A stretch of DNA of 62,717 nt, filler included, from Diploschistes diacapsis (GCA_023645945.1; 14 parts of 14 records of this genome joined end to end with filler, not necessarily neighbours in it); one strand, 5' to 3'. Positions 1-2,799 are shown, numbered from the whole stretch's first letter. Numbers and translations: made by a program. Notes: generated by a model from the sequence alone, not told the origin.

Positions 1-235
<235 letters not shown>

Positions 236-266
236 CTAAATTTATTTTATATTTTTTCTTGTTTTT

Positions 267-1055
267 TTATATTTTTATATATTGATTGTATATGTACATA
301 ACTAATAAAAGTACTATAAATATAGTCGTTATAACTAATATAGCTTTAAAGAAAAATTGTAATTTTTCCTTATCAGTATAGTGTTTAGTAACAAATATTC
401 TTAATACTTCATCCAAATAACAGTACAATAATGTTATTATACATAAATATATTATTAATAAGCTAGCTGTATATATGTGAGTAAATCCTATTACCAATTT
501 TATTTGATAATCTTTTTCAATAGACCTTTGTTTAATTATCCAATTATACATTTGTATAAGAAAATGACAAGCATTAGATAGAAATGGTATAATAGTTAAG
601 AAAAAAAGTATTAAAAAGATTGACCCCATAAAGCTTATTAACAAAAATTTACTAATATTACTTAAATCTTTCTTAAGTATAAATTTTAAACCATAAACTA
701 AAGCGGTAAGAGATAAGGCGGGTAAAACAGACGTGATTTCTACCGATCTTCATCCCAATGGTTTATTTAAAACCAGCTCATCTATGTTTTTATGGTTTAA
801 TTTACTCATTTCCAATTTATCCATAATATTTCTAGGTATATTATTATAATCTATATCAACATAACCAAAAAAATACATAAAATTTAAAGTTCCTACAACT
901 GCAGTTATTAAAATTATTACAACAATAAGATCTTTACTAAAAAAACTAGAATGTAATAAACTTTTGTTTATATCTGTTTGAAATATTAAATAATATTTCA
1001 AATCTTTAAGTACTTTTAAATTGCTTAAAAAGATGAAAACAAAAAAGAACAGCAA
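267..1055 (-). CDS. Orphan ~260-codon hydrophobic (multi-TM-like) ORF nested in the 3' (P9) region of the cox1 intron
   Basis: ORFs 750-1055 and 267-644 are in the same frame and are joined by TGA(Trp) at 750-752. Positions 645-749 have no stop (RSVEITSVLPALSLTALVYGLKFILKKDLSNISKF). Several long apolar segments are present. The start codon is uncertain. Confidence 0.6.
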
Positions 1056-1091
1056 GAAAAAAAAAGTCTCTTTTTTTATCGGACTATATCT

Positions 1092-2072
1092 TTATCCTTT
1101 GTTATTTCACTTGTCATTGAAGATAGTTCATGCTTTATACAGAGGACTATTAGGTAAAGCAGAATACGCCTTAAGATCAATCAAGTAATAATACTCATCT
1201 ATTAAAAAAAATCTTTGTTTTTTGTTAGATCTTAAAGGATATTTCAAAATATATGTTTTAAAATAATTTATGTCAGATCTACTTTGTATAGATCATTTGT
1301 AATAGCCATTCTGACCTTTATCGAAATATACATTACCTTTAAATATTTTTATAAAGTCTATTACATCAATATGTAATTTATTTGTAACGCTTACAGTTAA
1401 CTGAGGATGTTTATTTTTTATAGAATAAGTAATAGTACCATCTGCATCAAAAAACCCTGAAAATCACCCGTTATCAAAATTATCCTTGTTATAAATAGGG
1501 TATATCAAAGGTGTATTTAATAAAATACAAAGCTTTTCTAATTGTTTTAATCTGCTTGTGTGCTTAATTTTCCCATTAATTCTATTTATTAAATTAATCA
1601 TACCTTTTTTATTGTGTAATCTGTATCTTATAGCTTTTACCCCTGATCTTAATTTTATAGATCCTCCCAATTTTTGCTTAATTATAGCTAAAGCATGGTA
1701 ATCAGACAAAGACATTGTTATTTCGCAACTAGCGTAACCTGATTTGCTTACTAATAGAGTACCATCTCCATCTATTAAACCGGCTAGTCACTCGTTTCAA
1801 GCTTTATCTTGTAAAAAATTTTCACAATCTTCAAGTGAATTCTTATAAAAGGATAATGGACGTGTAGTCTCTGAGGTTCCTACTAAGAAATTAAGTCTTT
1901 TCGTTACCTGCTGATTGTTTGACATTAAACTAGTTTTCACTTTATAGGGATCATGATTAACAAATAATATTAAAGCCAGACCGCTTATTAATAAAGTATA
2001 ATTTAAATACTCAAAGTTCCAGCATATAGTCCATATCATTATATATATTACTATATATACGGGCCATCCTCG
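1092..2072 (-). CDS. Intron-encoded double-motif LAGLIDADG homing endonuclease/maturase, in frame with the upstream cox1 exon
   Basis: With TGA=Trp (code 4), ORFs 1797-2039 and 1464-1715 merge into one frame with the motifs WLAGLIDGDG and WFSGFFDADG. The frame ends at TAA 1092-1094. Confidence 0.93.

Positions 2073-2799
<727 letters not shown>

Follow-up and report, generated by a model that had tools for sequence, protein, structure and literature searches.

A predicted membrane-protein open reading frame in the 3′ tail of a cox1 group I intron from a Diploschistes diacapsis assembly

Introduction

Fungal mitochondrial introns are usually treated as a ribozyme plus an endonuclease. The yeast cox1 intron aI4-alpha (I-SceII) presumably occupies the same ...FWFFG/HPEVY site as the intron considered here and carries an exon-fused open reading frame (ORF) that ends near P7′, behind which, to our knowledge, there is no second ORF. 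In the sunY/nrdD intron of phage T4, the ORF lies 3′ of the core, with several hundred nucleotides (nt) between P9 and a remote 3′ splice site; it is the only ORF of that intron and is related to endonucleases. In contrast, the frame that we describe here, ORF2, is a second, hydrophobic ORF, located behind the LAGLIDADG endonuclease ORF of a cox1 group I intron. It lies in a 62,717-nt stretch of DNA from Diploschistes diacapsis (GCA_023645945.1; 14 parts joined with filler), hereafter called the window.

A previous reading of this locus, made from the sequence alone, held that group I intron ORFs are almost always homing endonucleases or maturases. That statement needs softening, as non-endonuclease genes in introns and transmembrane ncORFs are both in print (PMC8393795, PMC4201751). 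ncORFs or uORFs with transmembrane regions were reported in fungal mitochondrial genomes by Himmelstrand et al. 2014 (PMC4201751). There, ncORFs are defined as being at least 420 nt long, without significant similarity to characterised proteins and with a methionine start; transmembrane regions were predicted in five of six of them, the AT-richness of stop codons was taken as an argument for their authenticity, and a plasmid origin was proposed. ORF2 resembles them as a long frame in AT-rich fungal mitochondrial DNA, with no characterised relatives and several predicted helices. It is 789 nt long, has no family match and has predicted transmembrane segments; its probable start, in contrast, is TTG rather than a methionine codon. 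Furthermore, the ncORFs as described there come from Agaricomycetes and are largely intergenic or plasmid-derived, whereas ORF2 sits in an intron tail of an ascomycete-type, lichen-associated mitochondrion. Unlike the plasmid-derived ncORFs, it has no plasmid gene nearby in the 2.8 kb of context.

The non-endonuclease genes of organellar group I introns include rps3, N-acetyltransferases and aminotransferases, according to a review (PMC8393795). Like ORF2, they are unrelated to homing or splicing, occupy a peripheral position in the intron and are inherited together with it. Their products, as presented there, are soluble and belong to recognisable families, and rps3 is essential, whereas ORF2 is predicted to encode a polytopic membrane protein of no known family; unlike them, it also has an endonuclease gene, itself intact, as its neighbour in the intron, and its recent constraint is weak. 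In Sclerotinia borealis, 9 of 61 intronic ORFs were labelled “hypothetical protein” (PMC4162613). In large ascomycete mitogenomes, annotation of such ORFs, which are intron-located and lack an endonuclease domain, as does ORF2, is routine; most have received no analysis and many are regarded as fragments, whereas for ORF2 conservation, empty sites and substitution patterns were examined. The ORF2 family is best filed as a new, very small member of a known, poorly understood class, that of transmembrane ncORFs and intron passenger genes.

Results

A long open frame nearly fills the tail of the intron

The first contig of the window (contig 1, positions 1-2799) is mitochondrial and was read in code 4, on the basis of TGA codons at tryptophan positions within cox1 itself. 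All of its features are on the minus strand. Those needed to place ORF2 are as follows.

267..1055, minus strand: ORF2, 262 codons plus a TAA stop (269-267), predicted membrane protein with 5 to 6 helices (frame, homologues, hydropathy)
2072..236, minus strand: group I intron, 1837 nt (sequence; intron-less joint in run X2; contiguous COX1 profile)
1092..2072, minus strand: LAGLIDADG ORF, exon-fused in frame, two motifs (Pfam LAGLIDADG_1, E 3.7e-17, two stretches)
1081..1092, minus strand: S-type motif, 3′ strand of P7 (P7′), aligned with related introns L001, L002, L004, L005 and L006
1059..1077, minus strand: P9-type hairpin with an 8-base pair (bp) A/U stem and a 3-nt loop, directly after P7′ (fold)

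Between the S/P7′ motif and the 3′ splice site lie 845 nt, close to the approximately 850 nt that the sequence-only reading had given for this intron at HLFWFFG|HPEVY. The frame of ORF2 runs from stop to stop over 1091..267, 274 codons, which nearly fills this tail, and its stop is 31 nt short of the 3′ splice site; the earlier description of a code 4 sense frame of some 260 codons ending about 30 nt before that site was accurate, as were all other details of that description that could be checked. The frame holds exactly one TGA (752-750), read as W, and is the same as that of the endonuclease ORF, with a single TAA between the two. The other five frames of the tail contain 7 to 39 stops each, versus 1 in the ORF2 frame. 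None of 2000 mononucleotide shuffles reached 274 open codons (mean 65, maximum 156), which speaks against T-rich composition alone as the source of the frame.

Membrane helices were predicted using a hydropathy window rather than a trained transmembrane predictor. Five to six segments of ORF2 have a 19-residue Kyte-Doolittle mean above 1.6, in line with the several apolar stretches noted before, and the second codon position is 49% T. Lys and Arg are denser in the three short loops (10 of 47 residues) than in the two long ones (11 of 87); one might speculate from the positive-inside rule that the long conserved loops would be placed toward the intermembrane space.

The start of ORF2 is likely the TTG at 1055-1053. 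This codon is preferred because it yields a product of 262 amino acids (aa), the length of the P0004 group of relatives described below, and because the N-terminal hydrophobic stretches then align. For haplotype comparison over 1-2799 we used contigs of four sequencing runs from four studies (X1 to X4). In X2, four extra bases are present in the hairpin homopolymer after position 1070; as they break the frame link to the endonuclease, ORF2 is unlikely to be a read-through extension of the endonuclease ORF.

ORF2 belongs to a very small family maintained over the long term

A word-indexed search of 5.8 billion clusters returned one protein, P0002, of 244 aa, identical to ORF2 at 226 of 244 positions. 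Three matches came from an exhaustive HMMER search of 1.84 billion representatives: P0003 (95 aa, 85% identity), P0004 (262 aa, 39% identity, E 7e-42, aligned over ORF2 residues 15-272) and P0005 (157 aa, about 31-32% identity, E 3e-10), which covers the C-terminal half. With P0009 (262 aa) and P0010 (83 aa), which were added by a profile search, the family amounts to six 90%-identity clusters among the 5.8 billion. Two further 262-aa proteins, P0006 and P0007, sit in the cluster of P0004, and no source names any member. So far, its members are confined to a small number of mitochondrial contigs of fungi and to metagenomes from lichen, rock and glacier forefields. Pattern searches for further relatives gave 330 matches in JGI metagenome contigs, 194 in IMG/VR and 366 in GTDB genomes, none of which was confirmed, and tblastn found no ORF2 paralogue in the other contigs of the window (best other E 0.46). 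P0010 ends just before the TGA of ORF2 and P0005 starts right after it. This split fits a gene caller using table 11, which argues that the TGA read as W is conserved.

Conservation within the family is region specific. The hydropathy peaks keep their position in the P0004-type relatives, and polar motifs are conserved. Residues 159-192, a hydrophilic or amphipathic loop, form the conservation peak of the family, with 23 of 34 positions identical to P0004 versus 76 of 223 elsewhere (Fisher p=2.7e-4). Identity to P0004 is 42/128 in the hydrophobic segments and 57/129 outside them.

We then simulated neutral substitution with the base composition of ORF2 itself, in 300 runs per divergence level. 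At 93% identity 13% of the simulated frames were still open, and none of 300 was at either 66% or 39%; at 39% the frames had acquired 13 stops on average. Together with the intact 262-aa members at 39% identity, the simulation calls for selection against stops over most of the history of the family.

Searches for the identity of the protein gave no named relative. The ORF2 protein matched no Pfam family at E<=10, and thus no LAGLIDADG or GIY-YIG domain, whose absence had been noted before. Among seven family members Pfam returned only noise (best E 0.042), without LAGLIDADG_1/2/3 or GIY-YIG. A profile of the family found no match at E<=10 in PDB sequences, and none was found in NCBIfam or PHROGs. 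The standard nad, atp, cox and cob subunits show no similarity to ORF2 in Pfam, NCBIfam or PDB sequences, in keeping with the previous remark that it is not recognisable as a standard mitochondrial gene. When the ESM Atlas was queried with P0004, the best scores were at most 0.80, to unnamed bacterial clusters and at chance level. A word-based literature search, which is weak evidence of absence, found no paper describing the family.

The tail is empty in some related introns and holds another ORF in others

Related introns were found by searching JGI metagenome contigs with the LAGLIDADG protein, which gave six loci, five of them distinct (L002 = L003). In L004, L005 and L006, whose LAGLIDADG proteins are 52-70% identical to that of contig 1, the tail is empty and the exon begins about 35-40 nt past P7′. 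L005 and L006 have a short hairpin behind the S motif and reach HPEVY within about 40 nt; in L004, HPEV lies within about 35 nt of the S motif. The hairpin of contig 1 (1077-1059) aligns with the hairpins of the empty tails, and we conclude that a module was inserted behind the hairpin, just ahead of the few bases that end the intron. As the earlier reading had asked to be verified by folding, the hairpin lies directly after P7′ and ORF2 beyond it. Since the related introns do without the module, ORF2 would contribute nothing to splicing or homing. ORF2 constitutes a discrete module of approximately 790 nt, bounded by the P9 hairpin on one side and by the 3′ splice site on the other, in a mobile cox1 intron that has its own LAGLIDADG endonuclease.

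In the two remaining distinct loci, L001 and L002/L003, whose endonucleases are 67% and 62% identical, respectively, a different ORF occupies this place, which is 740-780 nt long there.

L001:3952-4735 and L002:3922-4657 (= L003): another orphan tail ORF, type B, in sister introns

The type-B ORF is not hydrophobic. Its copies in L001 and L002 are homologous (23% identity, E 5e-8), and both are broken by in-frame stops. Intact relatives (P0013, P0014 and P0015; 246-268 aa) belong to a small unnamed family of five clusters, for which Pfam, NCBIfam and PDB gave no match. The first residues of P0013 are the S motif read in another frame, which argues that the type-B family is also tied to this intron position. 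The relatives have invariant HPDY and E-x-K stretches, in which one may read a resemblance to PD-(D/E)xK nucleases; a structure model was useless (predicted local distance difference test, pLDDT, 32.0). The tail of this intron family therefore exists in at least three states: empty, with a hydrophobic ORF or with a soluble ORF. No convincing flanking direct repeats were found as an insertion signature. Behind the empty tail of L004, another LAGLIDADG intron (L004:1850-2626) starts four codons after HPEV.

Recent evolution and competing explanations

ORF2 is probably a true passenger gene that codes for a protein, or ceased to be one only very recently, its product being a predicted membrane protein of about 262 residues and 5 to 6 helices in the intron tail. 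Close haplotypes show how it has changed of late. The contigs of X1 are identical to the window, while X2, represented by one 2015-nt contig over 138-1881, shares a second haplotype with X3 and X4. ORF2 occurs together with the same endonuclease in all four runs, which are close haplotypes, and it is open over 262-274 codons in the copies of the window, X1, X2 and X3. The X2 contig has 31 differences to the window, 27 of which are listed; those within ORF2 explain each of the 17 real amino-acid differences that separate P0001 from P0002. In the endonuclease part of the contig (1095-1881), three non-synonymous and one synonymous change are listed. Per site, changes in ORF2 (18/732) are 4.9 times as frequent as in the endonuclease ORF (4/786; p=0.002). 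X3, a run of great depth whose contigs are fragmented, has minor-fraction deletions of 1-4 nt at 601, 613, 963, 1027 and 1057, most of them within homopolymers; they are probably errors or heteroplasmy and were not counted.

Several observations tell against a functional gene. Over codons 31-274, which are 93% identical to the X2 haplotype, the listed changes comprise 17 non-synonymous and 1 synonymous substitution, with a ratio of 7:5:6 between first, second and third codon positions. With 143 synonymous and 589 non-synonymous sites, the ratio of non-synonymous to synonymous rates (dN/dS) is 4.1 from the listed changes alone (binomial p=0.11 versus 1). Up to four further, unlisted X2 changes could be synonymous, and dN/dS would be 0.83 if all of them were and lay in ORF2 (p=0.75). 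At short range the ratio is therefore not distinguishable from 1. In X4 alone, 361 A>T turns L244 of the 274-codon frame into TAA, with loss of the last predicted helix. P0003 stops after residue 95, an ambiguous case, perhaps a TGA read by a table-11 caller, that was left uncounted. No ATG is present before residue 60 of the 262-residue ORF2, and its start is uncertain. No RNA run is among those matching 1-2799 (15 rows, 9 studies). The AlphaFold model, from a seven-row alignment, is all-helical and unreliable (pLDDT 46.7; predicted template modelling score, pTM, 0.32), and there is no fold or family assignment for ORF2.

These data would suit a relic in decay, i.e., an ORF of mitochondrial or plasmid type, once functional, that came to lie in the tail and is now functionless but has not yet acquired a stop. 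The preponderance of amino-acid changes and their even spread over codon positions, the faster change relative to the endonuclease ORF, the TAA in X4 and the want of an ATG start all favor it, and as 13% of neutral runs are still open at 93% identity, the open frames of the window and X2 are by themselves no proof of selection. We nevertheless regard a relic as a doubtful explanation, because the copies of the window, X1, X2 and X3 are all open, four intact 262-aa proteins of the P0004 group differ from each other yet remain open, and the region-specific conservation indicates function over most of the history of the family. The inference from openness to selection that was drawn from the sequence alone thus stands for the long term, with 262-aa relatives at 39% identity and 0/300 open neutral frames, but selection is not visible at short range (17:1, dN/dS 0.8-4.1). 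Two of the signs named there as telling against selection, dN/dS near 1 and stops in homologues, are in part present, the former at short range and the latter as the premature TAA of X4. In sum, ORF2 has been maintained over the long term, recent constraint on its amino acids is weak or absent, and at least one copy is truncated.

The excess of amino-acid changes could alternatively reflect diversifying selection on a selfish membrane factor spread by the endonuclease, with a role resembling cytoplasmic male sterility (CMS), addiction or competition. The non-synonymous rate of ORF2 (17/589) does exceed the neutral rate from the listed synonymous changes of both ORFs (2/298; p=0.046), ORF2 is physically linked to a homing endonuclease in 4/4 runs, and its long-term retention with local decay would resemble the life cycle of a selfish element. 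We consider this improbable, as the excess is gone if the four unlisted differences are synonymous (p=0.51) and neither a toxin, a CMS protein nor any other known family shows similarity in Pfam, PDB, NCBIfam or PHROGs. That there is no gene at all, the open frame resulting from T-rich composition or from the RNA structure of a long P9 extension, appears very improbable. With 49% T at the second codon position any open frame here reads hydrophobic, and the RNA of the tail folds somewhat better than shuffled sequences (z = -2.8, 20 shuffles), but the shuffles do not reach the length of ORF2, the frame has protein homologues at 39% and 31% identity with conserved polar motifs, no neutral run stays open at the former divergence, and related introns need merely some 35-40 nt in this place. 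It is equally hard to credit that ORF2 is a second endonuclease that has degenerated, or a diverged copy of one of the standard nad, atp or cox subunits. Its length of about 260 aa and its 5 to 6 helices are within the range spanned by atp6, nad6 and cox3, but the searches of Pfam, NCBIfam and PDB sequences found no subunit, and no LAGLIDADG or GIY-YIG motif is present.

If ORF2 is a passenger gene, as we favor, it would be transcribed within the cox1 precursor, in which the ribozyme core P1-P9 would be complete without the module, ORF2 would be looped out, and P1/P10 and the terminal G would still define the distant 3′ splice site. Once excised or processed, the intron RNA would be translated, beginning at a non-ATG codon beside the hairpin, and the product would be inserted into the inner membrane. 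The module would hitch-hike, since every copying of the intron, including homing, would copy it as well. The amino-acid sequence of ORF2 is weakly constrained, except for the conserved hydrophilic loop, and some copies are decaying. A bolder proposal, to which we give little credence, is that ORF2 encodes a membrane effector that moves horizontally with its intron, evolves under diversifying selection and affects how mitochondria of lichen-forming fungi compete or are inherited. The 3′ tail would then be an exchangeable cargo slot for different orphan genes, the hydrophobic type of contig 1 and the soluble, possibly nuclease-like type of L001 and L002.

For this one well-bounded locus, a conserved family, substitution data and a comparison with empty sites are available together. 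It indicates that a gene for an unrelated membrane protein can be housed in the tail behind P9, ahead of the 3′ splice site, and that sister introns hold another orphan there. If such passengers are expressed, they would be lineage-specific inner-membrane proteins that travel by homing, which would bear on mitochondrial conflict and on the annotation of “hypothetical” intronic ORFs.

Boundaries and ribozyme core of the host intron

The remaining features of the cox1 locus are given below.

2073..2405, minus strand: cox1 upstream exon, ending ...HLFWFFG (Pfam COX1 profile 114-210, E 3.2e-29; 5′ limit approximate)
140..235, minus strand: cox1 downstream exon, from HPEVY (at 235) to ...GYLG (Pfam COX1 profile 211-240)
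2062..2075, minus strand: P1 hairpin with internal guide, 5 bp (read from the sequence)
1863..1874, minus strand: R-type motif, 5′ strand of P7 (sequence; also upstream of the endonuclease domain in L001, L002/L003, L004 and L005)
252..261, minus strand: 3′ arm of a possible long-range stem of 10 bp, in which CAAGAAAAAA would pair with UUUUUUCUUG (1062-1053) (inverted repeat I2)

The COX1 profile continues from 114-210 in the upstream exon to 211-240 in the downstream exon, and the interruption is therefore exact. The intron boundaries were fixed independently by an intron-less allele: three contigs of X2, from other fungi of the sample, join 234 to 2072, skipping exactly 1837 nt. Exon pieces from other fungi in the same run align as far as 2405. 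At the other end contigs part ways at 138-150, and in-frame stops follow GYLG.

The 5′ exon ends in U and the last base of the intron is G. In P1, GGU|CG would pair with UGGCC, with a U-G pair at the splice site, and a P10 pairing is suggested by the complementarity of the guide GGAUG (2069-2065) to the first five nt of the 3′ exon, CAUCC (235-231). Both strands of P7 are present (R and S are the names given to these motifs in the group I literature), and with the U-G pairing of P1, the terminal G and the P1/P10 guide, they mark the host as a group I intron. The S motif overlaps the stop codon of the endonuclease ORF, the TAA at 1094-1092. An exon-fused G-x-x-W-P coding stretch is common to the intron of contig 1, L002, L004 and L005. 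Among PDB sequences, the endonuclease has weak matches to enzymes of the I-OnuI family. Rfam gave no match at the gathering score in the window; at E<=10 on 1-2799 it returned four unrelated weak matches and no group I model. We judge this to reflect insensitivity to mitochondrial introns with large ORF insertions.

The empty introns L005 and L006 fold hairpins at the place equivalent to the P9-type hairpin. Homopolymers within the latter vary in length in X2 and X3, which fits a non-coding RNA. In the centroid fold of the tail, the regions of roughly 1062-1053 and 261-252 pair over a long range. Such a stem might leave ORF2 in a loop and place the 3′ splice site close to the core; its arms are of low complexity, and it is altered by a 10-nt deletion at 244 in X2 and by 261 G>C in X4.

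Divergence from X2 is mosaic along the contig: it amounts to 2.3% in ORF2, whereas the endonuclease ORF and the upstream exon, for the most part, differ by about 0.4%. Three differences, all synonymous, are found in the 95-nt downstream exon, and nine listed ones, mostly G>A, in an upstream intron (2679-2761). This pattern suggests recombination or gene conversion with a breakpoint near P7′ and the hairpin.

cox1 is densely interrupted in contig 1: a further intron starts after GYLG (1-140), and 2406-2799 contain the 3′ part of the upstream intron, which is richer in G+C and structured around 2680-2790.

Composition of the window and origin of the matching runs

The sequencing runs that match contig 1 come from lichen, rock and glacier-forefield metagenomes and from several coded organisms. 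With the use of code 4, these sources suggest an ascomycete that either forms lichens or lives on rock. The window itself has 26 runs of N, which are pairs of 44-N spacers between short contigs, mostly of approximately 2.8 kb and one of about 25.4 kb. Because the contigs are joined by spacers, neighbourhood across them is meaningless. G+C content switches between approximately 25-30% and 50%, the window being a mix of mitochondrial, AT-rich and nuclear-type pieces, the last with about 50% G+C. In one AT-rich contig (15164-16108, minus strand), open frames include sequence resembling retroelements and a stretch similar to a CCHC zinc knuckle, which suggests a degraded nuclear retrotransposon rather than mitochondrial DNA.

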